DNA from: an uncultured Pseudomonadota bacterium
Lineage (GTDB): Bacteria; Myxococcota_A; Polyangia; Fen-1088
Length of the DNA: 64,000 bases
Assembly: GCA_963737345.1 (NCBI GenBank)
Contig: CAVTSM010000009.1
Span: forward strand, 7,532 to 71,531
Direction: 5' to 3'
Positions 34,558 to 61,372 of this stretch are shown in pieces. The position numbers and the translations under genes were made by a program. Position 1 is the first letter of the stretch; each line of letters starts with the position of its first letter. Under the pieces are notes generated by a model. That model was given only the letters and a program-made list of their open reading frames with translations. It did not search any database and was not told the DNA's origin.

Positions 34558-36150
34558 ATGACCGACGAAGACACCTCGACACTGGGCGGGCTCGGCGCGA
34601 TACGCGAGTCGAGCGGCCTAGCCCTGATGCCCGCCCTGACGATTCTGGTACACCCCGATATCAGGCGGGTTGGCGAGATCGCACCGCTCACGGCACTACT
34701 CGATGCGCGCCAGGCGAAAGTCGACCGAGACGAGCCGCTCTTCTTCCTGGGCGATGCCGATACGGGGCGCGGCCTCGAACACAGAGCCGTATCAAAGAAG
34801 ACGACCTCGCTGGTCGTCGTTCAGCGCCCAGACTCCGGATTTGAGCTCCGCCCGGGCGAGAGCAACTACCCACTGGAGCTCGACTCGAAGCCTTTCGACC
34901 AGCCTCGGACGTTGACGCGCGACGATTTGGATCGTGGGCTCATCATCACCATCAACGAGCGCATCGTCCTCTGCCTCAAGCTCGTCCGGTATCCCGTGGT
35001 CCGGTCGCGCGATCTTGGCCTCCTTGGCGCCAGCGACGCGATCGAGGAAGTCAGGCGAAAGATCCTCCGCGCAGCGGCGCATCCGAAAACGCCTGTCTTG
35101 CTCCGCGGCGAGACCGGCGTCGGCAAGGAACCGACGGCGCGGGCGATCCATGCCGAGAGCGCGCGGGCCGAACACCCCTTTGTCGCTCTCAACATGGCGC
35201 GGCTCTCCGGGACGCTCGCTGACGGAGATCTGTTCGGTCACGCCCGCGGAGCCTTCACCGACGCCAAAGGCAGCCGAGCCGGCGCGTTCCTCGAGGCCGA
35301 TGGCGGAACGCTGTTCTTGGACGAAATCGGCGAGGCTTCGGCGGAAGTGCAGGCCAAGCTGCTTCGAGCGCTCGAGGACAATTCCATCGTGCCTGTGGGC
35401 GCCGATAGACCCCGGCCGGTCGATGTGCGCGTCATCGCGGCGACGGACAAGGATCTCGAGGAGGCGGTGCGCCAGAAGACGTTCGACGACGCGCTCTACT
35501 TTCGCCTTCACGTCTACCCGATCGACATTCCCCCGTTGCGCGCGCGCCGCGGCGATACGGGCGTGCTTTTCTTCGCCGGGGTCCGGCAGCGTCTCGCGGC
35601 GGTCGGAGCCGCGGCGCGCCTGGACGAGCATCCGGGCCGCCCGGCCTGGATCCCTGCGCGAGCCGTTGCCCGTCTGGCGCTCGCACCCTGGCCGGGAAAC
35701 ATCCGCGAGCTCCTTGCCGTCGCCGAGCGACTCGTCGTCGAGAGCACCGATCATCCCGATCTGGATGTGGACGAGTTCATCCGCAACGAGTTGGCGCGAT
35801 CAGCGCGACTGGCGCAGGATCCGAAGACCGAGGACGCGCCGTTTGTGGACCACCCGCGCGCGCCGGGCGTCCCTAAGCGCGGGACCATCACCCTGCAGCA
35901 GCTGCTCGAAGCCCTGGCGCGTGCCCGGTGGAACAAGAGCGAGGCCGCGCGTGCATTCGGCATGAGCCGGCCGACGTTCTACAGGCTGATCGAGGAGAAC
36001 CACCCGGCCGTCCACCAGGTCCTCGAGATCCCCTACGACGACATCGTCCGCGACTACACAGCCTGCGGCCGAGACGTGCAATCGCTCGCGACCAAGCTCG
36101 GCATCCCCGCCGAGGTCTTGCTCACCCGTCTAAGGCGCCCGCGCGGGTAG
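34558..36150 (+). CDS. Sigma-54-type AAA+ transcriptional activator (FHA-like N-terminus, Fis-type HTH)
   Basis: Walker A GETGVGKE, GAFTDA in place of GAFTGA, GGTLFLDEIG, RVIAATDKDL, and a C-terminal HTH (NKSEAARAFGMSRPTFYRLIEE). Confidence 0.85.
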   Translation: MTDEDTSTLGGLGAIRESSGLALMPALTILVHPDIRRVGEIAPLTALLDARQAKVDRDEPLFFLGDADTGRGLEHRAVSKKTTSLVVVQRPDSGFELRPGESNYPLELDSKPFDQPRTLTRDDLDRGLIITINERIVLCLKLVRYPVVRSRDLGLLGASDAIEEVRRKILRAAAHPKTPVLLRGETGVGKEPTARAIHAESARAEHPFVALNMARLSGTLADGDLFGHARGAFTDAKGSRAGAFLEADGGTLFLDEIGEASAEVQAKLLRALEDNSIVPVGADRPRPVDVRVIAATDKDLEEAVRQKTFDDALYFRLHVYPIDIPPLRARRGDTGVLFFAGVRQRLAAVGAAARLDEHPGRPAWIPARAVARLALAPWPGNIRELLAVAERLVVESTDHPDLDVDEFIRNELARSARLAQDPKTEDAPFVDHPRAPGVPKRGTITLQQLLEALARARWNKSEAARAFGMSRPTFYRLIEENHPAVHQVLEIPYDDIVRDYTACGRDVQSLATKLGIPAEVLLTRLRRPRG

Positions 36151-42371: not shown

Positions 42372-42912
42372 CCGACCGGGTGGCGCCTCGCCAGCTCGAC
42401 GGGCGAGGCCTCACACGCGTCAGGACGCGCACCGCTGTGGCCACCGCATGGACCACCAGCGCCAACACGAAGCACACGTCGGCAGCTTCCCCCAACACCA
42501 TCAAGCGTTCGAGCATCGGCACGGGCAGAAAGTAGTATCGGCGAGCTCGGGAGGAACTTGTCGTCTCGCGCGTTCGGGAACCGATGGCCGAGCCCTGGCG
42601 TCTCGCTGACGACTCGGCGGCGACTTCGGGGTTCCTTGGCGAGCTACCCGGAGGTCGGCCGGCACTGAGGGCAGGGCGTCGCCGCCCGTTTTCCGGTCCC
42701 TCCGGTAGGTGAGCTCGGCGCACCCACTTCCTCCTTGGTGGGCGGGCCGGGGGTCGCTTTCGCCGGCGCCCCTGCGCAACCCGTGGCCGGGCTACGGACC
42801 TCTGCTTTGTCGGCTCCCCCCGCGCGACGGGTCCCCCCGACAAAGCGGTCCTCCGGCGCAGGGGAGCTCGGCCCGCTCCCCCGTGGGCGTCCCGCCCATC
42901 AAGGAGGAAGCC

Positions 42913-43580
42913 ATGAAAGATCGCGAGCTCATCAAACCGTTCGAACCATCCGCTGCCGCCGCCCCACGACCCGCCGCCCCGGAACCGGCTGACCGCGACG
43001 GTGCCGAGCTCCTCTCCGGTGTCCTCGACGTGAAAGTCTCCACCGCCCAGCGCCTCCTGGCCAGGCTCGGCGGGCTGAAGGCCCTCAGCGCCGCGAGCGA
43101 GCCCGAGCTGATTTCCGCCGGCATCCAGGCCACCAAAGCCAGGCGCCTCTGTCACTCCCTCGCCCTTGCCCGGGCGGCCATTGGACAGCGCCCGGTTCGC
43201 GGCCAGCGTCTCGCCGGAGCCGCAGAGGTCTGGGCCCACATGCGCGCCCGACTCGCCAACCTGCCCGTCGAGGAGTTCTGGGCCATCGCACTTGACGTCC
43301 GCCACCGCGTGGTCCTCGACCAGCTCCTTGCCCGCGGCAGCCTCTCGGGCGTCGAGATCCACCCCCGCGACGTCTTTCGTCCCCTGATCCGCAGCCGGCG
43401 CGGCCGCCGTCATCTTCTGCCACAACCACCCGTCAGGCGACCCAGCTCCGTCCCGCGCCGACATCGAGCTCACCGAGCGGCTCCGCGAGGTGGGCGACCT
43501 CTGCGGGATCGCCGTCCTCGACCACGTCGTCGTCGCCGCCGATGGGCTACGTCAGCCTAGCCGAGCGCAACTGGCGTTGA
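42913..43580 (+). pseudogene. radC: radC (JAMM-motif DNA repair protein family), two frameshifts (about 43395 and about 43545)
   Basis: ATG 42913 after AAGGAGGAAG. HhH-like region LLARLGGLKALSAASEPELISAGIQATKARRL. In a second frame [28 protein letters not shown]...[10 protein letters not shown], and in a third [10 protein letters not shown] followed by the stop. Confidence 0.75.
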
Positions 43581-43643
43581 TCCGACGTTGACATCCCGGC
43601 AGGCGTCCGCCGGCGGCGACGGACGTTCACCTCCGATGCGCTC

Positions 43644-44528
43644 TCAGATCCTTGAGTATCTTCGTCTTCGTGTCGTCTGAAGATCCACACCGATTGAACG
43701 GGCGAATCCGTCCAGCCCCGGATACAGCGTAGCCGCCGTGATGTTCATCAGTCTCAGGCGTCTGAGCACTTCCCTGCGCAGGCAGGTGTCCGCACAAATT
43801 TGAACGACAACGGGATTCTTCCCGCCCGCCATTCTCGGTAGTCCGGCTGAAGGATCGAATGGTATCGGGTCATGCTCGGTCCGCGACGCCTCTCCGTAGA
43901 GCCCGAACAGGTTGTACTCGAACGAGTGGTCGATCGTCGCTGGGACGAGGAATGCGCCTTGCTGGGCTGCCATGCGTTCATTCATTCGGTAGGTTTCCGC
44001 AAACCATACGGCTGGTCTCGGCCAACGCTCCCCAAAAATATGGTCGAGAAGCGGCGTCTTTTCGTTGGGGCTGTCGCGGTGCGCGTGGCGGGTCCTGGCC
44101 CCGATGCTTTCTGAATCAAACGCCCAGATTGAACAAAAACCATGGTCGTCGGAACTCTCGAACGCAAAGTAGGTGGCGACGTAGGGAGAATGAGTCACAT
44201 CCAAAAGGCGAGACGGGGCGCCGTGATGTCGCAGTAGTGCCCACCAATCGAAGCGCTCATCGAGAGAAGGAGGAGCAGCGTAGTAGTGGTGCGCCTGCCG
44301 ACGGAACCGCTGGATAACAGTGTCCTCCAGGAGCAGGCGATCGCGCACAGCGCACCTCGATCTATCGAACGTACGTTCGAGCGTCGAAGCCAGCGAATCG
44401 GACGCTCGGCCTTGCCCTCGAAAGCACCATGCTTCGCCTTTGAACTCGTCCAGCGCGGATATGAGTTCCTGCCACGTTGAGATCCGGATTCGAAGAAATA
44501 TGCCCGCAATTTCTGACTCGTACGGCAT
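43644..44528 (-). CDS. FRG-domain protein
   Basis: WCFRGQGRASDSLASTLER and WWALLRHHGAPSRLLDVTHSPYVATYFAF match the FRG domain. Lower GC than its surroundings. Confidence 0.8.
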   Translation of the reverse strand: MPYESEIAGIFLRIRISTWQELISALDEFKGEAWCFRGQGRASDSLASTLERTFDRSRCAVRDRLLLEDTVIQRFRRQAHHYYAAPPSLDERFDWWALLRHHGAPSRLLDVTHSPYVATYFAFESSDDHGFCSIWAFDSESIGARTRHAHRDSPNEKTPLLDHIFGERWPRPAVWFAETYRMNERMAAQQGAFLVPATIDHSFEYNLFGLYGEASRTEHDPIPFDPSAGLPRMAGGKNPVVVQICADTCLRREVLRRLRLMNITAATLYPGLDGFARSIGVDLQTTRRRRYSRI

Positions 44529-44702
44529 GGCTGGGACAGCCCACAGGACGCCGGACTACTTCTGATCCTCCCTTTCGCGGCAGATGGTAAGTACGCGACT
44601 GCGATGCAGGCGGAGAGCAACATGCGAAGGCTAGTGGACGAACTGGAGTACCGCGCGGACCAAGCTGCGAACATGGACTGGTAACTACGACTTAGTGCCG
44701 GT

Positions 44703-45884
44703 TCACTGATGTGCGGCGTGTGGTCCGCTCGGGGCGTCGCTCGGTCTCTTATGTGATAGCGCCTTCCACCAGTTCACGATCGTGCCTCTCGTGAGGTGTT
44801 CGAAAACATGAAGAAGCATCGGGAGGTCTTCGCTCACCCAGCTGCCGTCTCTAGTGGCTGACGCAATGGCGTCCGGCCTTTCGACGTATCGACCTGATTG
44901 TATTGCCGGGCCGCACATCGGCTGCGGGAAGGGGGTCCCGTTGTGAAGGGCCTGGGACCGATACTCATAGATCTTTTTCAGTGCAGCCTCCAAATCCGGC
45001 CATTCCCACGAGATCACGAGGTCGTCGGCATCCCGGCGGGGCGGGGCGGCAGGACGGAACGCTTCGACGAAGGTCATCAGTCGTTTTCCGGATCCGAGCT
45101 GCCGCTCCAAGTGCTTCGCGACCTTCGAAACGAGTGTCATCCCACCCGCCTGCTCGACGTCTCGGTAGAGATCAGTCTTCAAATCCTTCAGGGTCTGTTC
45201 GGGGCTGGACGATGATTCTTGGTGGTGAACCGACACCACTTCCAATGCCGCAACGAACAGCAGCCAAGAAAGGGCTGGCTGCCCCTCTGCCACCCAGAGG
45301 GCGTCCTGATAAAGCCGCGAGCCACGGACGAGCGAAATCGCTTCCAGCGGCGACAGTAGCGCGTAGCTCTCAAACAGAGGTACGAGGGCAGACCCGACGT
45401 CTTGGGTTTCGAACGCTCGGGGGATGATGCCGTTTTTGTGGCGCGCTGGCAGGGGAGTCGCCGGGCGCTCGACGTCTGCACGCGGTCGGCCTCGAGGATC
45501 CGTTCCAAAGAAGTCACGCGTCACGCCTCCCGGGCGCAACCGAATACCCATCAACAGGCTGCATAGCGACGCAAGTTCATCCGCCAGCCAGCCTCCGTGA
45601 TATCGGCTCGTGTCGGTTACCGACATGTCCGGAACGGTTGGCGGGATATGGGAACTCATTCGCAGAGCGAGCGCTTCGGCAAACTCGAACGTGTGGCGCG
45701 GGACCGTATTCAAGAGGTCGTACGGAACACCGTCCTTGACGAACTCGCCCACGACATGGCCGTCCGAATAGAGGAGGACTTCAACTACGCTGAGAGCCGG
45801 GCGGCCGTCAGCGGCTGCACGCCAGTTCTCATACCCGCGTGGACCCTCGATTGGCTGCTTCTCCTTGCGCTTCTGAGCACACAT
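44703..45884 (-). CDS. Hypothetical protein with a C-terminal Rx4H (HEPN-like) motif
   Basis: 393-aa ORF (ATG 45884). YEYRSQALHNG sits in a helical C-terminal half; the N-terminal half has no motif I recognise. Co-oriented between the SIR2_2 and FRG genes. Confidence 0.55.
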   Translation of the reverse strand: MCAQKRKEKQPIEGPRGYENWRAAADGRPALSVVEVLLYSDGHVVGEFVKDGVPYDLLNTVPRHTFEFAEALALRMSSHIPPTVPDMSVTDTSRYHGGWLADELASLCSLLMGIRLRPGGVTRDFFGTDPRGRPRADVERPATPLPARHKNGIIPRAFETQDVGSALVPLFESYALLSPLEAISLVRGSRLYQDALWVAEGQPALSWLLFVAALEVVSVHHQESSSSPEQTLKDLKTDLYRDVEQAGGMTLVSKVAKHLERQLGSGKRLMTFVEAFRPAAPPRRDADDLVISWEWPDLEAALKKIYEYRSQALHNGTPFPQPMCGPAIQSGRYVERPDAIASATRDGSWVSEDLPMLLHVFEHLTRGTIVNWWKALSHKRPSDAPSGPHAAHQ

Positions 45885-45987
45885 GCCAAGACTGTCTCAC
45901 AAGATCGCACCGTCGTAGTCCACCTGGCCGACTACGTGGACGCCGACTGCCGCGGGCCCCATCATCCGGCCTGCCGGACGGCGTCCC

Positions 45988-46983
45988 TTACGTCCAGAAG
46001 CCTCTTTCAAGGAGTTGGTGATCGACGCCGCGGCCGTCGAAAAGGTGGTGCCAGCTACCCGGGGTGTATCCCACTACCGCATTCCAGATCGTTCCCATCC
46101 CTCGAGCCCTGAGGGAGGACCTTATCTTTTCTGGGTCACTTGGATCGACGACCCAAAGCCTGAGTCCTGTCTTCACTCCAATAGCGATACTCCGATTGAT
46201 GTGGTCGTCGGCAAAGCTGTACCCGATGACAAGTAGGCGGCCCTCGGGCTGCTTAAGAGCAGCCCTAAACACCGCGGTGTTGATCCGAAGAATACGAAAC
46301 TGCTTTATCGCCGCCTCCTTCGCCCCGCCCAGGACCATGACGTCCCCACGCGGTCTCCGCCAGTTTGTAGAACCATGTAGCTTGATGTAGGTGATCTTGC
46401 CTTTCGCCGTTCGGAAGCTCGGCCCAGGATCGTCGCTGACTGTCACCGGGTGCGAGGCGTGCGGCCAAGGAGCCGTCGCGACCTCCCGTCCGAACCACCA
46501 CGACTCGCTCGGAACGCCGGGTATGTCCACTCTCGGGGCGTCACCAGAAAGCATGAACCTCTCGAGCAGGAGGTCCTGGTTCAGCGTGAAAAGGCACTTG
46601 GTGCCAGGACCTTTGCTGAAGGTCTTCAGAAGGCCCCAGAGCGCGGTCACCAGCCCTTGATTGTCTTGCGTCCTGATGCGAATGTCCTGCAAATCGAAGG
46701 CGTCCATAATCGCTGCGCGCAAGACGTCGCGATCCGCTTCGGAGTAACGTTCCTTTTCTGTGACCTCGGCTTTTGCCAACGCTTCCTCGAAATTCATCTG
46801 GCGGTGTAGGAGTCGGTCAATTTTCGGCCGCGCTCTGATCTTCGGATTTCCGAGGATTAGGCTCCAGATCTCTTTCGCCAGATAGCCTCCCCAGTCTCGA
46901 GAGAAACCGGCGCCTGTGAGCAGCAGGCGGCCGTTGAAGGGCGCCAGCGTCGCTGCGATCTGAACACTCGATCCCGATCCCAT
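45988..46983 (-). CDS. SIR2_2-family (defence-type sirtuin-like) protein
   Basis: LLTGAGFS, FTLNQDLLLE, IKLHGSTNW and LVIGYSFADDHIN. ATG 46983 is preferred; the ORF track extends to a TTG at 47019. Confidence 0.8.
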   Translation of the reverse strand: MGSGSSVQIAATLAPFNGRLLLTGAGFSRDWGGYLAKEIWSLILGNPKIRARPKIDRLLHRQMNFEEALAKAEVTEKERYSEADRDVLRAAIMDAFDLQDIRIRTQDNQGLVTALWGLLKTFSKGPGTKCLFTLNQDLLLERFMLSGDAPRVDIPGVPSESWWFGREVATAPWPHASHPVTVSDDPGPSFRTAKGKITYIKLHGSTNWRRPRGDVMVLGGAKEAAIKQFRILRINTAVFRAALKQPEGRLLVIGYSFADDHINRSIAIGVKTGLRLWVVDPSDPEKIRSSLRARGMGTIWNAVVGYTPGSWHHLFDGRGVDHQLLERGFWT

Positions 46984-49900
46984 TGGGCGCCAGCATACTT
47001 CGCGTGCTGGAGCAAACAATTGCTATCAATGAGCGCGTTCGTTCAAGGCCGAACTGGAGTGCGCACTCGGACGGCGGGTTGTTGTACGATGCTGCGGTGA
47101 CCGCCTTCGTCGTCGCCCGCGATCGCGATGCGTACGCGACGATCAGAGGCTTTGTCTACCAGATTGAGCTGACGCTCTCTCGGTGGATGGAACTCGCCGA
47201 GACTGAAGCATTGGAGTTGGAGTGCGGCGAGGATATCGACGTTGTCGGCCGTGTTCTGGGAGCGGAAGACGGCGATCCGTCCGTACACCGAATCTTGGAG
47301 CAGGTGAAGTATCGCGCGAAGGCAATCACACTTCGATCGCCCGAATCGCTGGGTGCCATTGCGAATTTCGTGGAGCACCGCGAAGCGAATCCGGGGCTTC
47401 GACTGAGATTTCGGTTTGTAACGCACGCCGAGGCAGGTCGAGAGCGGCCGACAACCCTGCCGGACAACTATTCGGGAATAGGTGCCTGGGAAGCCATACG
47501 GAGACAAGAAGTACAGGGTGAGGTGCTGCGCGACCTACTTCGCGGACTCGGCACGCTTTTGCAAACTGCCGAAGTTCCCGGAGGCGCCGCTCCTTTAGCC
47601 TGGGCGCGCCTGCAGGAGATTGCGCGGTCGGAAGCGGAGCTTCGCAGCCTTGTCGGAGATTTTGAATGGAGTCTACGAGCCGGGATGCCCGCCGAAGTCG
47701 CAGAGGGCCTTCGGGAAACCCTTTTGCGACAGTTCGGAGCGTCGGATGCCGAGACGGCACAAATTCAATATTTGCGCCTCTTCGATCGGGCCGTGCGCAC
47801 CCTTTGCCGGCCAGGTCTCAAGAGGCTGACGGCAAAGGATCGTGACGAAATCCTAGTCCAGCCTTCGCCCACGCCCGAAGAGCAGCGACGGCACGCTCTT
47901 CTTCGCGAAGTGCTCGGTGAGCTTCGTGAAATCGTCGACGGACACGGCAGACACATCCAACGTCTGGAAGATCAGATGGGTGATGTGCAGGTCCAGCTAC
48001 AAAAGATGGTGGGAACGGAATTCGGACCGCTCCTGCCCGAGGGGGCACCCGACCTCAGCCTTCCGATCGGTCTCGTCCATGCAGCGTCTCGCCGGGAAGC
48101 GATTGATCTGCTGGGCAAAGCTTCTGCCTCTGCAACGTGGACCGTCGTTCAGGGTGGACTGGGGAGCGGGAAGAGTGAACTGGTTCGGACCTTTGTTGCT
48201 CGAAGAAGCACACGGCACCCGTGGGTCCGTCTCCGTGATCTCGGTCCAGCGGCGGCCAGTGCACGCTTGCGGCAGGCGGCTCGACACGTGTCTTGCGGGC
48301 GAACGTTCGATGATCCGAAGAGCCTAGGTCGTGCACTGGCGGAGTACGTTGGGCGGGAAGGCCTTCTCGTCCTCGACGACATGCCGCGCGTCGACGGAGG
48401 TGGCGAACTCTTCGATGACGTCGTGCGAATCGTGAATGCATTGGACGCCGTCGGTGGTCGACTACTGTCGACGAGTAGCTACGATATCGATCCCGCCGTG
48501 CGGGAACGCTTCGACGGTAGCCGACTAGCGGTGTTGTCGGCTCCTACCTTCACGGACGACGACATTCGCGAGTGGCTTCGGTCCGTCGATGCTCCAGAGC
48601 GATGGTCGACGCGCGAAGCATGCGGCTACCTTGCGATGCGATCGAGTCGCCACCCGGTTCTTTTGGCAGACGCCATCCGAGGCCTGAAGTCGATGGGATG
48701 GCCTCTGGTGGACGACTTCGAACGCGCGGCTGGTGAACGGCCGACGCCGGAACGGGCGACCATGCGCCGTTTGGTGCGGTCAGTACCCGTGGAGGACCGG
48801 CGCAACCTTCTTTATAGGCTCACTCTGGTCAGAGGACCTATATCTACCGCCGAGGTGCGGGCCGTCGCGGAAGCACCGCCACCGATCGGCGAGTCACAAG
48901 CGCACGTGTCCGAACTTGCCGGCCTATGGCTCCAGACCGACTCAGGAGACCGTTACGTCGTGTCGCCGCTTGTAGCGCGCCTTGGCGATACCGAACTGAC
49001 TGAGGTGGTACGGCGGACCGTAAATCGACAGCTAGGGATGCTCGTGCTTTCACGCGGTTCGCTGGGGGTAAGTGACGTTGTGCGGGCATGGTACTACCTG
49101 ACCGACGCCGGCATGCGCTCGAAGGCTGTGGCGCTCCTCACTTGGGCGTTGGGCGCCGCGAGAGCCGCAGGGGATCGCCGCACACAACTGCTCCTACTCC
49201 GTCTCGGAAGAAACGCTTCGCTTACGGAAGTGTCTGCTGGAATGCAGATCAACCTGCGCGCGACTCAGATCAGCGTCGCCGCCCGTCTCGGTAAGTCCGC
49301 AGCTGACATCGAGACTGAGCTCGCCGTCCTGTTGGACCAGCCGCTTCCCGATGGTGAGAGGTGGTCGCTGGTCGTCGCTGCTACAGCTCTTACTATCGCG
49401 CGAGGGCCAAAGAACGACGGCTTGGTAAGTCGGGTGTTCAGCCTCGCGCTTCAACACTACTCGACGGCACGTCTTCCCAACGGGGTGGAAATTGCTGACG
49501 TCATGCCAGAGACCTTCGAGCAGCTGATCTGGCTGCAGGCTGGGAACGTTCAGTCCTCCGAAGGCGTTGCGGCATGGCTGCAGACGCTCGAGTCGATGAG
49601 TCCGGAGCAGCGCCAGACAGCTCTGGCGGGCGATTCGTATCTAGATGGCTGCTCCGCCATCTCGTCGCGTGTGTGGTTGCGCGAAAATGCGAAACCACGT
49701 GACGAACAGAACTGGTCATCGGCGGAGAGTTTGTTGGGCGAGATCGAAACGGCCGGCCGAAGGCTCGGGCTGGAGCCCCTGTGGGCGTGGGCGCTGCGCA
49801 TTCGGATCATCGCTCTTGCTGAACACCTTGGTCGGCCAGAGGACGCGATCGCGTTCGGGCGGGAAGGCCTAATCGTTGCAGTCACTCCGCTGGGCCAGTT

Positions 49901-51290
49901 CGCACTGCGCGACGTCATCGGTCATCAGTTGGTTGGGATAGGTCGCTCAGGCGAGGCACGGCCGTATCTCGAGGAAGCTCAGCTCCCAGTGTTTGAGGGC
50001 TTTGAGCTGTTCCGGATTCGGTCTCGGTTGGAGCTGGCATCTATCTTGGGGCGAGAAGAGCGCGCGAAGGCCGTCTCTTTGACGGGAGAAGCACTGGATC
50101 TGGCAAACGAGACCGCAGCTCTGCCCGCTTCGGAGGTAGTCATGTGTCTCGCAGAAGCAGCGATCGCCCGCTTCGATGCCGGTGGAGTCTCCGCTGCGTT
50201 CGACGCTTGGGACGATGCGCTCGGTCGAGTAGTCGACGGGGTGTCTGCTGAACCAACCGACAAATGGAAGGGGCTCCTTGTCCGATGCGGTCATGTGTCT
50301 GGATACTTCGTCTCGATGGCCCGTACAGGCGCTCCACCGGAGCGTAAGGCGGGCACGCCATACGCCCAACCAAAGCTGGGTATGTTCCTGGGCGAGTCTG
50401 CATCGTTGGCGGGGTTCTTTGCCGAGACATCGGTTGGCCTGCTTATGACTCACGGCGCTCTTTACGCAGAGGCCGTCGGCCGCGACGACCGTGCGGCCGC
50501 GTGGGCGCTGCGTGGAATCGACGAGGCGACCAGAACTGGCGATAAGCCGACGCTCGCAATTCTCGCTACTACGGCCGTGAATCCCCTAATAGTTGCAGGC
50601 GACTATGGTGCTGCGCTGGATGCGGCGTTTCGCGGTGCGAGCATCGCGTCGGAGGCCCTCGCGACCATCTCACCTGACGCCGGTCAGCGCCCGCCGGAGA
50701 AGGTTGTCGATGAGGCCGAGGAGAGAGCGCTCGCACTCGCTGTCGTGCCGGTGGCACTCCAGCTCGCTGTTGCTGTGCAATCAAAGGGCGAGGATGTGGC
50801 CGCGAGAATCAACAGAATCGGTATCGCGTGTGAGATCCTGGCGGGAAGGTCCGCACGTCCAGACATGTGGAAGAGTGCGGCTGGAGTGCTTGAGGAATCG
50901 TTTGTGCGTGGAGCGACTGTGAGGCGACTGTACGAAGAGTCCCAGAGGCTGGGTGCGAAGTACGGACGCGTATTCCAAGCGGTCGCCTATATCGGAGCCG
51001 CGATTAGCCCAAACGCGTCGCTGGAAGACACGCTGGCGTTCCAGTGGGAGGTGCGCCGGTATGTTCTGAATGCGTTTGGCTCTAAGTCATCGACGCTGCG
51101 CCTCTTTCTTGATCCTTTCGTCGAGACCTTTTGGGGCGAGGCAACCAGGGAACAACGCTATCGCTTCCGTAACCCACAGATACTCGCAGTGGACTTCGAA
51201 GCCGCACGTGCGGTCGGCGAGGGAACCCGGGCCGGGGCGATTCTTCGAGTGGTTGGGTCGGCTCTTGGCGTGATCTTAAAGGGCGAGTAA
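46983..51290 (+). CDS. Large NTPase: N-terminal PD-(D/E)xK (DUF4297/Cap4-like) nuclease module, P-loop (STAND-like) core, long helical-repeat C-terminus
   Basis: 1435-codon intact ORF. The start is uncertain (TTG 46983, GTG 47004, TTG 47079). RGFVYQ, ECGEDID (about 47220-47240), EQVKY (about 47298-47312), Walker A GGLGSGKS (48153-48176), Walker B LLVLDD (about 48366-48383), then ~950 aa rich in helical Leu/Ala repeats. Confidence 0.85.
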   Translation: MGASILRVLEQTIAINERVRSRPNWSAHSDGGLLYDAAVTAFVVARDRDAYATIRGFVYQIELTLSRWMELAETEALELECGEDIDVVGRVLGAEDGDPSVHRILEQVKYRAKAITLRSPESLGAIANFVEHREANPGLRLRFRFVTHAEAGRERPTTLPDNYSGIGAWEAIRRQEVQGEVLRDLLRGLGTLLQTAEVPGGAAPLAWARLQEIARSEAELRSLVGDFEWSLRAGMPAEVAEGLRETLLRQFGASDAETAQIQYLRLFDRAVRTLCRPGLKRLTAKDRDEILVQPSPTPEEQRRHALLREVLGELREIVDGHGRHIQRLEDQMGDVQVQLQKMVGTEFGPLLPEGAPDLSLPIGLVHAASRREAIDLLGKASASATWTVVQGGLGSGKSELVRTFVARRSTRHPWVRLRDLGPAAASARLRQAARHVSCGRTFDDPKSLGRALAEYVGREGLLVLDDMPRVDGGGELFDDVVRIVNALDAVGGRLLSTSSYDIDPAVRERFDGSRLAVLSAPTFTDDDIREWLRSVDAPERWSTREACGYLAMRSSRHPVLLADAIRGLKSMGWPLVDDFERAAGERPTPERATMRRLVRSVPVEDRRNLLYRLTLVRGPISTAEVRAVAEAPPPIGESQAHVSELAGLWLQTDSGDRYVVSPLVARLGDTELTEVVRRTVNRQLGMLVLSRGSLGVSDVVRAWYYLTDAGMRSKAVALLTWALGAARAAGDRRTQLLLLRLGRNASLTEVSAGMQINLRATQISVAARLGKSAADIETELAVLLDQPLPDGERWSLVVAATALTIARGPKNDGLVSRVFSLALQHYSTARLPNGVEIADVMPETFEQLIWLQAGNVQSSEGVAAWLQTLESMSPEQRQTALAGDSYLDGCSAISSRVWLRENAKPRDEQNWSSAESLLGEIETAGRRLGLEPLWAWALRIRIIALAEHLGRPEDAIAFGREGLIVAVTPLGQFALRDVIGHQLVGIGRSGEARPYLEEAQLPVFEGFELFRIRSRLELASILGREERAKAVSLTGEALDLANETAALPASEVVMCLAEAAIARFDAGGVSAAFDAWDDALGRVVDGVSAEPTDKWKGLLVRCGHVSGYFVSMARTGAPPERKAGTPYAQPKLGMFLGESASLAGFFAETSVGLLMTHGALYAEAVGRDDRAAAWALRGIDEATRTGDKPTLAILATTAVNPLIVAGDYGAALDAAFRGASIASEALATISPDAGQRPPEKVVDEAEERALALAVVPVALQLAVAVQSKGEDVAARINRIGIACEILAGRSARPDMWKSAAGVLEESFVRGATVRRLYEESQRLGAKYGRVFQAVAYIGAAISPNASLEDTLAFQWEVRRYVLNAFGSKSSTLRLFLDPFVETFWGEATREQRYRFRNPQILAVDFEAARAVGEGTRAGAILRVVGSALGVILKGE

Positions 51291-51566: not shown

Positions 51567-52012
51567 TCAACGCTTCAAAACTGCAGCTATCCGCGGATGC
51601 AGTTGGTCAACTGATCGCGAGACACCCTGAGCGCACCTCAGAAACTGTGAACGCATGTCTTCGACCTGAATCTCTACCGCAATTCGTTCCGCGATGTCGT
51701 CGGCAAGCTCGGGACCGCAAATCGCGAGTACCCGGCCCATTACGAACCAACGATTGTGGGACGCTCCCAGTTCTGCGGCTGCAACGGCGGCCGCGGCCTT
51801 CGCAGCCAGCGAGCCCGCCGAGAACACCGCTTGTACTCGGCCGATGATCACGTCACAGAATGCAAATGTGAATCCCGTTGAGCGAACCCAGCGGCAGTAT
51901 TTGTCGGCGATGCGGTCGCCTAATCCTTCGCCGCGACCTGCGAGCTGCTTTAAGTGCTCGGAGTCGAGGGCGGCAAGACTCGGCTCATCTTCGCCAGAAT
52001 CCGGGAGAGCGT
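51567..52012 (-). pseudogene. C-terminal part of the IS-interrupted kinase gene
   Basis: The reading frame ...DALPDSGEDEPSLAALDSEHLKQL...HPRIAAVLKR stop continues exactly from 53490 once the IS and one CTAG copy are removed. Confidence 0.65.
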
Positions 52013-52016
52013 CTAG

Positions 52017-53489
52017 CAGCCCGTGGTGGAAGCCCTTCCGCCGCTCAGGCCGGGACGTGGACGACCGCGATGGGCGTCTCGAGCGCGAATCGGACCGCCG
52101 GGCGGACCTGTCGCCAGTAAGCCCGCAGCGAGCGCAGCAACGCGAGGAGGGCGACCGCAAAAGCGGCCGCCCGGCCCTGGAGGCACCTCGGCTTGCCGAC
52201 ACCGAAGCGCGTTCGCATCAGCAAGGCCAGGTTGAGGCCCGCGATGTGCACCAGGAGCCGCTTGGCGATGTTCTCGTGTTTGCGCAGGTGCGTGCGTCGC
52301 ATGCCGCCGGTTTCGAAGGCGTGAGCAAAGGGGCGTTCGATGAGCTCGCCGCGCAGGCGCATCAACGCGAGGCCGCGGCGTCCGTTCTTGCGTCGACGAT
52401 TGGCGTACACCGCAGCGCACTCCGCCTGCTGCCCCGGCCATTTCTGCCGACCACGTTGAGGCTCGGCGATGTACGTGCGCCAGCCCGCTTGCTGCAGCGA
52501 CAGCAGCACCATCTTGCTGTGGTAGCCCTTGTCTGCCACGGCTTCCTCAAGATCTCCCTCACGCTGCGATTCGTCGCCGGCAATCTCGCGGGCGTCGTCG
52601 AGATTCTTCACCGCCGCGTCGAGCGTCCCTTCGATGGTCGCCGTGTCTCCCGCCGACGCCGGCACCAGCGTCACTGCCACGACTGCGCCGGTATCAAGGT
52701 CGACCGCATGCTCTTCCTTGTGGGCCAGGTGCGTCCGCCCGTCCTTCATCTTCGTGATCTTGGCGTCGGGATCGTTCGGGTTGAACCAGTCGTCGTTCGA
52801 GCCCTTCTTCTTTCGCTTCCGATCGAGGCGCGCCAGATCTTCGCGCGTCGGTGTTTCGATCCCCGAAGCCTTGGCCAGGTCTTCGAGAAACGTCTGGTAT
52901 GTGCGGCCATCGTCGCGCCGAACGATCGAACGCATCGCCGCGTTCGCCTCCAGCGTCGTCGCGTCCACACCGATCGTCTTGCCCTTGATGAGCCCGGCCC
53001 CGTCGAGTACGCCCAGCACCCAGGTGAACACGGCCTGATGTGTCTCCAGATCGATCAGCCGCCGCGTCCGCGAGATCGTCGAGTGGTCGGGCGTCAGCTT
53101 GCTGGCCGGCACTCCGATAAAGTCACGCAGACTCAGCGAGTCGGCGGCTCGCCAGGCGATCCCTCGTTCGCTATCGATGCCCTCGAAGAACCCGAGCAGC
53201 AAGCTGCGGAAGTAGATTCCCGGAGCAAGCCCCGGCCGTCCCATCTTCTTCGCGTAGAACTTCGAGCAGAGCCGCTCGACGTACCGATCGAACCCTTGCT
53301 CCCCCAGGACACGATTCACCGCCCGATAGAAAGGATGGCTCTGCGACCGTAGCTGCTGATGCGTGACGAACAGGTCTTCCTGCTCGCCCTCTCGCTTTCC
53401 CATTGCCACGTCCGCATCCTGCCCAACCCGAGATCCTGCGTCGATCGTGATCAGGTGTTCAGGTCACCCGAGACTTCCACCACGGGCTG
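52017..53489 (-). mobile_element. Insertion sequence (IS5/IS1182-superfamily type), 1473 bp, 16-bp terminal IRs, flanked by CTAG on both sides
   Basis: cagcccgtggtggaag (52017-52032) is the exact reverse complement of cttccaccacgggctg (53474-53489). CTAG lies at 52013-52016 and 53490-53493. A single transposase ORF is inside. Confidence 0.85.
52045..53409 (-). CDS. DDE transposase (InsH-like N-terminal domain plus IS4/IS5-type catalytic domain)
   Basis: 454-aa ORF. GRPGLAPGIYFRSLLLGFFEGIDSERGIAWRAADSLSLRDFIG, TIGVDATTLEANAAM, AVADKGYHS and RGELIERPFAHAFETGGMRR are typical of this transposase type. Confidence 0.9.
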   Translation of the reverse strand: MAMGKREGEQEDLFVTHQQLRSQSHPFYRAVNRVLGEQGFDRYVERLCSKFYAKKMGRPGLAPGIYFRSLLLGFFEGIDSERGIAWRAADSLSLRDFIGVPASKLTPDHSTISRTRRLIDLETHQAVFTWVLGVLDGAGLIKGKTIGVDATTLEANAAMRSIVRRDDGRTYQTFLEDLAKASGIETPTREDLARLDRKRKKKGSNDDWFNPNDPDAKITKMKDGRTHLAHKEEHAVDLDTGAVVAVTLVPASAGDTATIEGTLDAAVKNLDDAREIAGDESQREGDLEEAVADKGYHSKMVLLSLQQAGWRTYIAEPQRGRQKWPGQQAECAAVYANRRRKNGRRGLALMRLRGELIERPFAHAFETGGMRRTHLRKHENIAKRLLVHIAGLNLALLMRTRFGVGKPRCLQGRAAAFAVALLALLRSLRAYWRQVRPAVRFALETPIAVVHVPA

Positions 53490-54342
53490 CTAGGTAATCG
53501 GCAAACTCTTCCGCTTTCTCGTTGCTCCAGGTGGCGATATCGGGCAGCTCGGCGATCCACTGTTGAGCTTGGGGGGTTGGCGGGATCTTTTGCGGAGTTG
53601 CTAGGATCGATAAAAGCGCGGCTCTAAGGGCGGCGACATTTTTGAATCGTTTCGCCGGGGAAAGCTCCGTGCACTTTTCAATCACCCGACCGATCGGACC
53701 CGGCGCAGAATGACGCTGGTACGGAATCCGAGGAGTCGAACCATAGATATCGTGGAGGATGCAGCCAAAAGCATAGATGTCAACGGCCGGGGTGGACCCG
53801 CTGAAATGTGTGGCTTGCTCGGGCGCGCAGTAATGCAAGGTGCCCCAAGCTGAATCCACCGATGTAAGCTTCGTCGTTGTACCTGTCGGTGGCAACGCGA
53901 GCCCGAAATCAGACAGGCGCCAGTGACCGTCGAGCAACAGAACGTTTTGGGGCTTCAAGTCTCGGTGGGTGTACCCGAGTCTATGGAGTTCTTCTAAGCC
54001 GTCCAAAATGTCGGCTAGCGGTTCCACACTGACGAAGCCGGCCGCCTTCTCGGCGGTAATCTGATCTCCGTAGTTCTTGGCGGCGAGCGGCATCGCGAAC
54101 CACGGAGGCGCATCTTCAAGGTGGTGCTCGATGACCGGTACTACGAACTCCACGGCGATCGTCGACTGTATTCTAACCTCACGACGAAACCTCGCCCGAA
54201 GCTTCGAAATGTCCGCGCCTGCTAGTGCGGGCCCGGGATCAAATACCTTTCTCGCGGCGATCTCGCCGTTCGCCAGCCGGACTTGTTCAACCCGACCGAA
54301 GCCCCCTCGGTTTATGATCGACAACACATCAGGAGCCGCCAT
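53490..54342 (-). pseudogene. N-terminal Ser/Thr kinase domain of the IS-interrupted gene
   Basis: GGFGRV, AARK, HRDLKPQNVLL, SDFGLA and YCAPEQ. In its present state the ORF reads 9 codons into the IS and stops at 53464. Confidence 0.8.
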
Positions 54343-56808: not shown

Positions 56809-59311
56809 ATGACGATGTTCTCGCTCAAGGGATACCGCGAGCCGACCCACCGGCTCCCCGACTGGCTGCCCTGGTACGGGCTGGTCGCGCCGGGCGTCGT
56901 GCTGCAGAAGAACGAGGTCCTACAGAAGACGGTGGCCTTTCGGGGCCCGGATCTGATGGCGTCCGGCCGGCCCGAGCTCACGGCCACGGTCCTCCGTCTC
57001 AACAACGCGCTCAAGCGGCTGTCCAGCGGGTGGGCGATCTTCGTCGAGGCGCAGCGGTTCGAGACCGACAACTACCCATCATCGGCGTGGCCGCACCCTG
57101 CGGCGTGGATCGTCGACTACGAGCGCCGCCACAACTTCCGCGGCGGCACGCACCTCGAGACCAGTTACTACCTGACGTTCGCCTGGCAGCTCCCGACGCT
57201 GGCGGAGCACCGGGCGGCGCGTCTGTTCTCGGGCGCGCGGCCGGAGCGGGCAAGGGCCGTCGGCTCTCGGCGGTCGCCGAGGATGGCCACGACGACCGCC
57301 GCGACCTCGCAATCTTCTGCAAGACCGTTCGGGAGATCCTCGACATCATGGCGGCGGTGTTCGTCGAGGTGCGCGAGCTCTCGGACGAGGAGACGCTCAC
57401 GTACCTTCACAGCACGATTTCGACCAACCGCCATCCGGTGCGCATGCCGGAGGTGCCGGCCTATCTGGACGCTCTCCTGCCCGACCAGGCGTTCACGCCA
57501 GGCGACATCCCGATGCTGGGACGGCACTTCGTGCCCGCCTGCACCATCACCGGGTTCCCCGGATCGACCGTTCCGGGGATCCTGGACCAGCTCAATCACC
57601 TCGGCATCGAGTACCGCTGGTCGACCCGTTACATCTTCCTTGGCAAGGAAGAGGCGCAGCGCGAGTTCGAGAAGGCGCGGCGGCGCTTCTGGCAGGGCCG
57701 CAAGAGCCTGCTCACGCTGCTGAAGGAGACGGTCACCAAGGAGGAGTCGGCGCTGGTCGACAACGCGTCGGCCGGCAAGGCAGGGGACGTCGACCGCGCG
57801 CTCGAGGAGGTCGGCAACGACCTCGTGAGCTACGGGTATCTGACGTCGACGATCGTGGTCTGGGATCGCGACGTCGACCTCGCGCGGCGCAAGAGCCAAG
57901 CGGTCCGCCAGGTGATCCAGCAGAACGGGTTCGTCGTCCGCGACGAGTCGCTGAACGCCCAGGAGGCCTGGCTCGGCACGCTACCCGGCCACCTATGGGC
58001 GAACGTGCGACGCCCGCCGGTGAGCACCACGACGCTCGCGCATCTGATGCCGCTCTCGTCGGTGTGGGCCGGGGACGAGGAGAACGAGCACCTGCGCGAG
58101 CGATCGGGCGTCGGCACGGCGCACGTCTATTGCTCGACCGCCGGGTCCACGCCGTTTCGGTTGAACCTGGCCGTCCAAGACGTCGGCCACACCTTCATCG
58201 TCGGCCCGACGGGCGCGGGGAAGAGCACGCTCCTCGGCACGCTCGCGATCCAGTTCCTGCGCTACCCGGATGCCCAGGTGATCATCGTCGACAAGGACAA
58301 GAGCGCACGGGCGCTCACCCTTGCGCTCGAGGGCGTCATCTACGAGCCGGGGAACGAGAAGGCCTCCACCTCGTTCCAGCCGCTGCGCGACATCGACGAC
58401 CCAGTCGAGCGCGTCTGGGCGTCGCAGTTCGTGCTCCATCTGCTCGGCGCAGCAGAAGGTGAGCCCGTCGCCCGAGCTGAAGGAGTACATCGACAGCGCC
58501 CTCGCCAGCCTGGCCAGCAATCCCCGCCGCGAGCACCGGACCATCTCGGGCCTGAGCTTCCTTCTGACGCCCGAGCTCAAGGCCGCTCTCTACCCGTACA
58601 CGGTTCGCGGGAACTACGGGCAGCATCTTCGACGCCGACCACGACTCCATCGGCTCTTCATCGTCCTTCCAGATGTTCGAGATGGGCGAGCTGATGCGCA
58701 TGGGCGAGGAGGCGGTCGCGCCCGCCCTCGACTACGTCTTCCACCGCATCGAGGCGCGCCTCGACGGCCGCCCCACGCTCCTGATCCTCGACGAAGCGTG
58801 GCTGTTCCTGCGCCATCCGACGTTCGTGAGCCGGCTGCAGGGGTGGCTCAAGACGCTGCGGAAGAAGAACGTCTACGTGGTGTTCGCGACCCAGGAGGTC
58901 GCCGACGCCGCGAACAGCCCCATCGCCCAGACGATCCTCCAGGCCTGCCCGACCAAGATCTACCTGCCCGACGAACAAGCCGAGACGCCGGCGCTGGCCT
59001 CGGTCTATCGCTCGTTCGGACTGACCGAGACCGAGATCTCCATCCTGGCGCGCGCGACCAAGAAGGCGGACTACTACTACAAGTCGGTGAAGGGACAGCG
59101 CCTGTTCCGTCTCGACCTTGGGCCTGTCGCGCTTGCCTTCGTCGGGATGTCGAGCCCCGCCGACCACCGGTTCCTCGACGAGTTGGAGCGGACTACGCCG
59201 CCCGCCGATCGGGCGGTGAAGATCCTGGCCCACCGCCAGCTCGAGTGGGCCGTTCCTTTGCTCGAGCAGGCGCGCGCTGCGCGCCCAGGAGGCCAGGCCC
59301 TGATCTCGTGA
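56809..59311 (+). pseudogene. trbE: trbE (VirB4 ATPase), three frameshifts (about 57250-57290, about 58450, about 58625)
   Basis: Four collinear segments in frames 1, 0, 1 and 2. Segment 1: MTMFSLKGYREPTHRLPDWLPWYGLVAPGVVLQKN... Segment 2: ...ETLTYLHSTIS...GPTGAGKST (Walker A, about 58203-58229). Segment 3: KVSPSPELKEYIDSALASLAS... Segment 4: IFDADHDS...RPTLLILDEAW...VVFATQEVADA. Confidence 0.85.
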
Positions 59312-60094: not shown

Positions 60095-61372
60095 GTGGAG
60101 TTCAATACCCTAACGACGACGCTGACCACGTTCGTCACGGCGTACTCGGCGGCCTATGATCGGGTCCAACCGATCGCCCACAAGGTGCTCGGTTCGCTGG
60201 CCCTGATCGAGATCGCCCTCGTCGGTATGTACCTGGCCCTGGACGGCGGGCACCACGTCTCGGCGCTGTTCGGCAAGTTCCTCAAGATCGCCGTCTGGAC
60301 CTACATCACGACGAACTTCCACCAGCTTGTCCAGGCGTTCTCGCAAAGTCTGATCGGCGCCGGCCTGATCGCCGCCGGCCAGCCCGGCAATTTCCAGATC
60401 CTTCTCGACCCCTCGAAAGTAGCCAGCATGGGCACAACGGCGACCGACGGTCTCGTCCACGCCTTGTCCAACATCGGGACCTTCGACTTCTTCGACGCCG
60501 TGGTCTTCGGTCTCATGTACATGGCCATCATGCTGACGTTCCTGCTGATGGCGGTGCAGATGTTCTTGGCCGTGGCGGAGTTCTACTTGATCTCCGCTCT
60601 CGCCGGGGTGCTCATCGGGTTCGGCGTCTCGCCGCAGTTCCGCTTTCTCTCGGAGAAGGCCATCGGCGCGGTGGTGGCCTGCTCGATCAAGCTGATGGTC
60701 CTCGCCTTCATCATGGCGATGGTCCAGCCAACTCTGGCTTCGGTTCGCTTCGTCGGGCCTGAGATCAAATTCAACGAGCTCTGGGCACTCCTGCTGACGA
60801 GCGGGACGATCATGCTCTTCTCCTGGACGGCGCCGAGCCTGGCGGCGTCCCTGCTGGCGGGCAGCCCGTCCCTCGGAGCGGGAGGCGTGGCCCAGAACGT
60901 CATGTCAGGTGCCATGATGGTCAGCGGTCTGGGTGGGTTGGCCATGACGGTCGCACGCGGCGGCGGTGCGCTGCTCGGCGCCGGCGCGCGGGGCGCCGGT
61001 GTGGTGGCGGGCGGCTCCGCCGCCGGGATCGCTGGAGCCGGCGGAGGAGGGTACGCCGCGAGCGCCCTTGCCGGGGCGCGGGGAGCGGCGCGGGCAGCGG
61101 CGGCGGGCGCCGGCAACCTGGCGAAGGCGCCTTTCGCGGCGTTGCGTGATCAGTTCGGAAAGGGATTCGAAGAGGGCGCAAGTTCGGGGACGCCGAAGTC
61201 ACCGGGCTCGCGCGCAGCGCCCACCTCCGACGCAAATGGCAGACCCATTGCAGGCGGCACGAGTACAGGCCATCCGGCGCCGTGGGCCGAGCACGCGCGC
61301 CGGGCGTTGCTGTCCCGCGCGAATGCGGCGCCCGTTGATCAGCCCGCTCCCGGTCCTGAAAGCGACGCCTGA
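60095..61372 (+). CDS. trbL: trbL (VirB6-type inner-membrane T4SS protein)
   Basis: GTG 60095 after GGGAG. Multi-pass membrane protein (LALIEIALVGMYLAL, MYMAIMLTFLLMAVQMFLAVAEFYLISALAGVLIGFG) with a G/A-rich C-terminal tail. Intact. Confidence 0.85.
   Translation: MEFNTLTTTLTTFVTAYSAAYDRVQPIAHKVLGSLALIEIALVGMYLALDGGHHVSALFGKFLKIAVWTYITTNFHQLVQAFSQSLIGAGLIAAGQPGNFQILLDPSKVASMGTTATDGLVHALSNIGTFDFFDAVVFGLMYMAIMLTFLLMAVQMFLAVAEFYLISALAGVLIGFGVSPQFRFLSEKAIGAVVACSIKLMVLAFIMAMVQPTLASVRFVGPEIKFNELWALLLTSGTIMLFSWTAPSLAASLLAGSPSLGAGGVAQNVMSGAMMVSGLGGLAMTVARGGGALLGAGARGAGVVAGGSAAGIAGAGGGGYAASALAGARGAARAAAAGAGNLAKAPFAALRDQFGKGFEEGASSGTPKSPGSRAAPTSDANGRPIAGGTSTGHPAPWAEHARRALLSRANAAPVDQPAPGPESDA

Follow-up and report, generated by a model that had tools for sequence, protein, structure and literature searches.

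Four genes in the cargo of a conjugative element

The stretch of 64,000 nucleotides analysed here, called the window throughout, belongs to contig CAVTSM010000009.1 of an uncultured bacterium (assembly GCA_963737345.1). Its positions 43644-51290 hold four intact open reading frames (ORFs) amid the genes of an integrative and conjugative element (ICE). Three of them lie on the minus strand and encode an FRG protein, a protein of 393 residues and a SIR2-type protein; the fourth diverges from them on the plus strand, and its very large product is here called the giant. An initial annotation, made from the letters alone, had proposed that the four might constitute one composite immune system. Their relatives are found apart from each other, and the locus is probably a defence island in the cargo of the ICE, in which four independently mobile, single-gene modules of immune type have become adjacent by accretion and do not make up one machine. 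The genes are arranged as follows.

43644-44528, minus strand: FRG gene, 294 residues
44703-45884, minus strand: gene of the 393-residue protein
45988-47019, minus strand: SIR2 ORF as called, longest form
45988-46983, minus strand: SIR2 gene, deposited model P0166, 331 residues
46984-47081: divergent intergenic spacer of 98 bp between the deposited start codons of P0166 (SIR2) and P0096 (giant)
46983-51290, plus strand: ORF of the giant as called, longest form
47082-51290, plus strand: gene of the giant, deposited model P0096, TTG start, 1402 residues

The deposited starts lie at 46983 and 47082; the SIR2 gene and the giant therefore do not overlap and face away from each other across the 98-bp spacer. 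The giant had been described as a protein of 1435 residues. That ORF exists, but the deposited TTG at 47082 shortens the product to 1402. The gaps on the minus strand are as first given, 174 bp between the FRG gene and that of the 393-residue protein and 103 bp between the latter and the SIR2 gene. Every motif quoted at the time was found again: WCFRGQ and LLDVTHSPYVATYFA in the FRG protein; LLTGAGFS, TLNQD, KLHGS and GYSFADDHI in the SIR2 protein; RGFVYQ, ECGEDID, EQVKY, GGLGSGKS (Walker A, its coordinates exact) and LLVLDD (Walker B) in the giant; RSQALH, from residue 309, in the 393-residue protein.

The low G+C content (GC) of the island, likewise claimed before, is real. It amounts to 60.8% in 43644-51290 against 65.3% in the remaining window, and no other stretch of 7.6 kb in the window is as low (median 64.9%). 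At third codon positions (GC3) the island genes have 63-69%, compared to ~80% in genes of the ICE backbone such as VirB4. The counts on single lines reproduce as well (48% at 44101, 62% at 46201 and 52% at 46261), apart from the line at 26041, which has 73% and not 75%. A scan of 43.4-51.7 kb for sigma-70 promoters and intrinsic terminators yielded no promoter and six terminator-like sites, with 5.8 expected, and is thus uninformative on transcription units. Megablast with 43-52 kb as query brought up no plasmid.

Absence of co-occurrence

A total of 194 loci was gathered, 84 with homologues of the giant, 79 with homologues of the 393-residue protein and 31 with SIR2 homologues; four viral contigs with homologues of the 393-residue protein were added later, and three plasmid contexts of FRG homologues were inspected. 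The 194 loci were searched by tblastn with the four window proteins and, on all six-frame ORFs, with family hidden Markov models (HMMs) or phmmer. Two of the four families were not seen together in any of the 194 loci, neither at the tblastn nor at the HMM level. On the plasmids, each of the three FRG homologues is by itself amid unrelated genes, and the other three families are absent. Even close relatives are already unlinked: a giant of 61% identity (locus L003), a 393-residue homologue of 69% (L001) and a SIR2 homologue of 77% (L164) each occur without the other three.

Nor is there a conserved neighbour of another kind for the giant (84 loci) or the 393-residue gene (79 loci). When all neighbours within 5 kb were clustered all against all, the largest neighbour family reached 8/84 loci of the giant and 4/79 of the 393-residue protein. 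The former are probably integrases, since Pfam Phage_integrase was detected in 9 of the 148 nearest neighbours of the giant. Among these and the 145 nearest neighbours of the 393-residue gene, SIR2_2 and FRG are not recurrent Pfam families.

As the families never co-occur in the sampled loci, the four genes are probably independent modules and not one system. The initial annotation had itself held that genes never seen together elsewhere would refute a composite, possibly new multi-effector system, and with none in 194 loci and in three FRG contexts its proposal is not supported. Its fallback, a stack of independent systems, agrees with the families being unlinked throughout.

The company kept by the relatives

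Mobile and defence functions recur in the surroundings of giant homologues. Pfam finds integrases, AbiEii, TrwB, pP_pnuc_1 and SLFN near them; the PADLOC scan adds AbiE, pAgo, ThsB, ShosA, QatD and Cas1, with no constant partner, and BREX genes are also present. One locus (L004, 1-9894) is a textbook defence island: a BREX/PglZ cluster and a pP_pnuc_1 nuclease gene immediately precede a giant homologue of 37% identity, and an SLFN_AlbA_2/HATPase_c_4 gene follows it.

Near homologues of the 393-residue protein, Pfam detects ResIII, N6_Mtase, Eco57I, Uma2, Fic and PLDc_2, and restriction-modification genes are among these neighbours. The PADLOC scan lists ZorD, BrxH, DrmA/D, DpdE, PDC-S03 and methyltransferases, again with no constant partner.

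The locus with the 61% giant, L003, is part of a related ICE, as judged from DUF3363 (59%), DUF6908 (62%) and matches to a TraF-like protein and to Toprim. The giant and DUF6908 are a few kb apart in both elements, but on the opposite side L003 has different genes: one for 327 residues diverges from the giant homologue and is followed by a DprA-like cassette. The idea that the 327-residue protein might be a hidden SIR2 was rejected by BLASTP and hhalign. The cassette consists of a gene for 298 residues (DNA_processg_A / LDcluster4; 5622-6518 in L003 and 9198-10094 in L193) and a downstream gene for ~210 residues. Its 298-residue protein is 88% identical between the two loci and adjoins a giant homologue in one and a SIR2 homologue in the other. 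To judge from the sequences, the shared cassette reflects a shuffling of cargo modules; the cassette is possibly a mobile module of its own, an uncharacterised defence or anti-defence pair.

The giant

The giant is composed of three parts.

47082-47861, plus strand: Cap4/DUF4297/LmuA-like nuclease domain, residues ~1-260, with RGFVYQ, ECGEDID and EQVK
48069-48761, plus strand: STAND (AP-ATPase-like) NTPase core, with Walker A GGLGSGKS at 48153-48176 and Walker B LLVLDD at 48363-48380
48999-51290, plus strand: alpha-helical region resembling tetratricopeptide repeats (TPR), residues ~640-1402, the presumed ligand sensor

A Cap4/DUF4297-like nuclease followed by a STAND NTPase and helical repeats had been recognised from the start, and the profiles bear this out. 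The N-terminus matches LmuA (1.6e-8) and DUF4297 (1.3e-5) of PADLOC and DUF4297_antiphage of NCBIfam (4e-5); Pfam returned no match for the nuclease domain, the family consensus as query included. In the PDB, the family profile meets DUF4297 (8xav, 3.7e-5), LmuA (9nxx), Apaf-1 (3e-4) and a consensus TPR (3e-7, positions 884-1069). At the domain level the N-terminus belongs to the Cap4/DUF4297 nuclease superfamily.

The residues expected to matter are kept. In the nuclease domain G23, Q27, E47, G49, E50, D51 and Q74 are invariant, and E73 and K76 are conserved to at least 90%. In the NTPase G358, G363 and K364 of Walker A are invariant and D433 of Walker B is conserved to at least 90%. Full-length family members number ~55 in the protein search, and 262 stretches of metagenome were confirmed. 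The family is found mainly in environmental lineages; several members carry the JGI label 'tetratricopeptide (TPR) repeat protein'.

An AlphaFold2 model of residues 1-700 has a mean predicted local distance difference test score (pLDDT) of 84.9. The top Foldseek match is SeAvs3 (8dgc_A, E 3.4e-12), which supports the earlier Avs/NLR-like reading; it is followed by Apaf-1, MalT, CED-4, Avs4, LmuA and HerA-DUF4297 (9c1m, 8xav). The 60 matches listed for the giant in sequence and profile searches of the PDB include no solved Avs chain.

The giant has the architecture of the Avs class in the broad sense, with an N-terminal effector, a STAND NTPase with Walker A and B motifs and a large C-terminal repeat sensor; it is also, in 84 loci, a single-gene system tied to defence islands and mobile elements. 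Such a Cap4-nuclease/STAND/TPR layout, and how it is activated, is established from work on SeAvs3 and SeAvs7 (Lee et al., Nature 2026, PMC13581612). The same authors define Avs7-Avs21 and 684 sensor clusters, and the Avs-like families, of which at least 90 are recognised, are structurally distinct (PMC13581612). With SeAvs3 (PDB 8DGC) and SeAvs7 the giant shares the Cap4-like PD-(D/E)xK nuclease, the STAND NTPase, the large TPR-like C-terminal sensor and the existence as a one-gene system in defence islands and mobile elements. It differs by a long helix between nuclease and NTPase (residues 265-311) and by a sensor sequence that is unrelated to the known sensors. Lamassu LmuA and DUF4297-HerA resemble it in the N-terminal nuclease, by profile (LmuA 1.6e-8) as well as by structure (9nxx, 9c1m, 8xav). 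Unlike these systems, the giant has no LmuB/SMC or HerA partner, its nuclease being fused to the STAND NTPase and the TPR region. It matches none of the named Avs families that could be tested and is therefore regarded as a new member of the Avs-like class.

The SIR2 and FRG proteins

Both assignments made from the motifs proved right. The SIR2 protein scores 28.6 bits with Pfam SIR2_2, above the cut-off of 24.5 bits (1.8e-6). Its family consists of proteins of ~330 residues with 991 homologues, in which GAG, H203 and D259/H261/N263 are invariant and N135 and D137 are conserved to at least 90%. By its score and by the presence of the NAD-binding and catalytic residues it is a SIR2_2 sirtuin. 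The SIR2 models for defence proteins in PADLOC and NCBIfam cover only residues ~209-314, and SIR2_antiphage of NCBIfam yields 31.6 bits, far under its equivalog cut-off of 500 bits.

With DSR1/DSR2, ThsA, SIR2-HerA and SIR2-pAgo the protein has in common the SIR2_2 domain with GAG and the catalytic Asn, Asp and His. It differs by its mere 331 residues, without sensor, SLOG, HerA, TIR or pAgo; the sensor of DSR measures ~1000 residues, the whole SIR2 protein 331. Since 43.6-54.3 kb contain neither a ThsB, SLOG, HerA or pAgo partner nor a DSR sensor, the locus lacks what Thoeris, DSR, SIR2-HerA or SIR2-pAgo would require. The protein is best described as a small solo sirtuin and a putative NAD+-consuming effector.

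Downstream of two SIR2 homologues, P-loop NTPases of the KAP family were noticed: one of 1523 residues with BNR repeats in L164 (9726-14297), next to the homologue of 77% identity, and one of 746 residues in L168 (10652-12892), next to a homologue of 49%. A KAP NTPase as a conserved partner of SIR2 was rejected; the two KAP sequences fail to group with each other at 1e-4, for which reason the adjacency may be coincidence, and such proteins are absent from other SIR2 loci.

The FRG protein matches Pfam FRG (PF08867) at 7e-21, with 75.4 bits against a cut-off of 25 bits, and the PADLOC candidate PDC-S15 (PDLC04937) at 1.5e-41 over residues 11-285, i.e. near full length. It is a member of both families. 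PDC-S15 shares with it the HMM and the FRG domain and is a computational candidate only. The 'S' in its name presumably marks a single-gene candidate. In the literature library searched there was no experimental validation of PDC-S15/FRG and nothing decisive on small solo SIR2 defence systems, and a scan of viral contigs with the FRG protein found no relatives. Iyer et al. (PMC9503650) count FRG among the ADP-ribosyltransferase superfamily and suggest a possible NADase activity; the FRG protein is accordingly a putative NADase-type effector of this superfamily, as far as homology can tell. Neither the SIR2 nor the FRG protein has an evident sensor domain.

The 393-residue protein

The third small protein is the most novel part of the island: its family is large, uniform, unannotated and often found beside defence genes. 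Pfam, PADLOC, NCBIfam and PHROGs contain no match, and sequence and profile searches of the PDB yielded none either. A word-indexed search retrieved 95 homologues. The exhaustive search retrieved at least 1,838 clusters at 50% identity with E<=1e-3, 875 of them at 1e-30. The best 150 of these clusters all contain proteins of ~350-500 residues with a single full-length match, which means one architecture. The distribution is patchy, over more than 10 bacterial phyla, and close homologues occur in Sorangium and Polyangiaceae. A homologue of 41% identity is encoded in a metagenome-assembled genome (MAG) of Methanophagales (L087, 8312-9415), the one archaeal case, which points to a spread of the family between domains.

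The protein has an N-terminal alpha/beta domain (residues ~15-130) and a helical C-terminal domain that contains RSxALH, an Rx4H motif, at residues 309-314. In 80 sequences R309, S310, A312, L313 and H314 are invariant, as are R190, E215 and an N-terminal cluster of H96, G97, E103, R115 and R123. The AlphaFold2 model is confident (pLDDT 92.8, predicted template-modelling score 0.92) and displays the same two domains. The structure prediction and Foldseek comparison proposed for this protein have thus led to a good model without a relative: searched as a whole against the PDB and BFVD, it found nothing significant.

The initial annotation had called the protein HEPN-like. The Rx4-6H motif that characterises HEPN domains is present, R309 and H314 being invariant in 80 sequences. 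HEPN models of Pfam, PADLOC and NCBIfam do not match the protein, those of Pfam do not match the 80 family members or their consensus either, and a structural neighbour is missing. An attempt to place the protein in HEPN or any other known family, with Pfam on the 80 members, the consensus and the two consensus halves, brought up DUF5063 alone, and this below threshold (0.011-0.036). The sole external pointer to HEPN is a UniProt name, 'Apea-like HEPN domain-containing protein', borne by the Lyngbya homologue.

ApeA and the HEPN ribonucleases of abortive infection resemble the protein in having the Rx4H motif (here RSQALH) in a helical domain and in being encoded by a stand-alone single gene. 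On the other side, neither a HEPN/ApeA model of Pfam or PADLOC nor a solved structure in Foldseek is matched; ApeA is moreover ~580 residues long, against ~390, and the N-terminal domain of the 393-residue protein is a different one that contains beta structure. The protein may be called a candidate HEPN-like nuclease encoded by a stand-alone gene. One may tentatively go further and imagine an undescribed, widespread one-gene immune or abortive-infection ribonuclease with a fold absent from PDB and BFVD, in which the N-domain (H96/E103/R115/R123) would gate a C-terminal Rx4H ribonuclease; this is possible, though rather doubtful.

Flanks and setting

The island lies between damaged genes and within conjugation functions.

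26374-28443, in the window: TraG/VirD4
42709-43640, plus strand: RadC/JAB pseudogene, whose frame changes from +1 to +2 inside the JAB domain, right in front of the metal-binding HNHPSG
51567-52012 and 53494-54342, minus strand: Ser/Thr kinase gene split by an insertion sequence (Pkinase 1.3e-25 for the N-terminal part)
52013-53493, minus strand: IS5-like insertion sequence of 1,481 bp, with DUF772 and DDE_Tnp_1 transposase (Pfam)
57030-58694, in the window: VirB4
60095-61372, in the window: TrbL

Conjugation genes, namely a relaxase-like DUF3363 gene, TraG/VirD4, VirB4 and TrbL, bracket the island on both sides. Genes of the type IV secretion system and its coupling protein on either side make the island cargo of a conjugative element; together with the low GC they uphold the earlier view of ICE cargo with a foreign composition. 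The insertion sequence ends in perfect inverted repeats of 20 bp at 52013-52032 and 53474-53493 (CTAGCAGCCCGTGGTGGAAG). Its GC3 of 81% is like that of the host backbone and unlike that of the island, and it does not belong to the defence genes. Its excision in silico restores a kinase ORF of ~430 residues. This kinase gene is convergent with the giant and has a GC of 58%; because it shares the low GC, the foreign island may be taken to reach to ~54.3 kb. Kinase-based regulators of immune operons (CapK/CapS) are known from PMC13373217.

The frameshift in radC and the split kinase are both as first described. Selection had been invoked to explain why intact genes stand beside such decayed flanks. 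This argument is weak, since a recently acquired island would look alike.

Further away, the window encodes a non-ribosomal peptide synthetase of 3,061 residues (5-9190; AMP-binding, Condensation, PP-binding, Thioesterase), whose ORF starts at the window edge, a second, intact Ser/Thr kinase (31399-32952) and a sigma-54 activator (34558-36150). Taken with the close homologues of the 393-residue protein in Sorangium and Polyangiaceae, these genes suggest that the host may be of myxobacterial type.

How the modules might act

By analogy to SeAvs3 and SeAvs7, the giant would be an Avs-like pattern-recognition receptor. Once a phage protein has bound to its TPR sensor, the STAND NTPase would be freed from autoinhibition and the giant would oligomerise in an ATP-dependent manner; the N-terminal Cap4-like PD-(D/E)xK nuclease domains, assembled in this way, would cut double-stranded DNA and thereby abort the infection. 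The SIR2_2 protein might consume NAD+ as a solo enzyme of the sirtuin type; the FRG protein, being of the ADP-ribosyltransferase superfamily, may be an NADase, too. In the 393-residue protein the N-terminal alpha/beta domain could sense a ligand or substrate and so gate the helical domain, which would use its Rx4H dyad as a HEPN-style ribonuclease.

Weighing the explanations

The accretion of independent modules is carried by what has been observed: the domain identities, the conservation of catalytic residues, the lack of co-occurrence and the context of mobile elements and defence islands. Several points weigh against it. The biochemical activities, the triggers and the protection phenotype are all drawn from homology and context. 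A PADLOC v2.0.0 scan of the giant at E<=0.1 returned no Avs/AVAST model, only the domain models LmuA and DUF4297, and its placement at family level within Avs is therefore provisional. The named Avs families of this PADLOC release are presumably AVAST types I-V. The profile searches that had been recommended thus gave FRG, SIR2_2 and LmuA/DUF4297, but neither a HEPN nor an Avs model. The mechanism of the 393-residue protein is the weakest step, its HEPN-style reading being based on the invariant Rx4H. Some neighbourhoods of the 393-residue and FRG homologues are metabolic and not defence-like. Sampling was uneven, with ~16 full-length loci for SIR2 and, for FRG, six plasmid matches of which three were inspected. 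Finally, the 98-bp divergent spacer and the three co-oriented genes would be compatible with local synergy or co-regulation in spite of absent co-occurrence.

This last point leads to a partial or lineage-specific coupling, be it of SIR2 and the giant via the divergent promoter region, or of the SIR2, 393-residue and FRG genes in one transcript, with all of them autonomous elsewhere. The short spacer and the co-orientation favour it, and the SIR2 homologues (77% and 49%) upstream of KAP NTPases hint that small SIR2 genes may often lie beside big NTPases. These two NTPases, however, do not cluster at 1e-4, other SIR2 homologues lack an NTPase next to them, a SIR2 of the same family is present in 0 of 84 giant loci, and the promoter and terminator scan does not help. 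Such a coupling is unlikely.

It is also quite improbable that the genes have roles other than antiviral ones, such as competition between elements, addiction or toxicity, exclusion, regulation by a STAND protein, or metabolism and stress in the case of the 393-residue and FRG proteins. Many STAND clades are indeed non-immune (PMC13581612), several neighbourhoods of 393-residue and FRG homologues do not look like defence, and the immune roles of all four are deduced from homology and context. Yet the giant carries a conserved nuclease where a DNA-binding output domain would be, and Avs3 comes out as its best match in structure; defence genes and integrases recur around the giant and 393-residue families, and the FRG protein matches a candidate model derived from defence islands. 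For the small genes a non-immune role is conceivable, given the metabolic surroundings of several homologues.

A composite four-gene machine, in which the giant would sense the infection and SIR2, 393-residue and FRG proteins would be its effectors in trans, has in its favour the tight packing (gaps of 98, 103 and 174 bp) of four intact genes with a common foreign base composition and immune-type domains, but is largely refuted and very improbable by now, in view of the absent co-occurrence in 194 loci (tblastn, HMM), the lack of a conserved neighbour of the giant or the 393-residue gene, the giant's own conserved nuclease effector and the 61% giant homologue that does without all three partners in a related ICE.

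What the island means

Conjugative elements commonly carry defence islands, and adjacency is misleading when taken by itself. The four-gene 'system' falls apart once the neighbourhoods of the homologues are compared. As a whole the island is ordinary, and its FRG gene is an already catalogued candidate. The family of the giant, Avs-like receptors of the Cap4-STAND-TPR type, would add a sensor to the catalogue of bacterial pattern recognition. The main lead is the family of the 393-residue protein, which could be put through single-gene defence screens at little cost.

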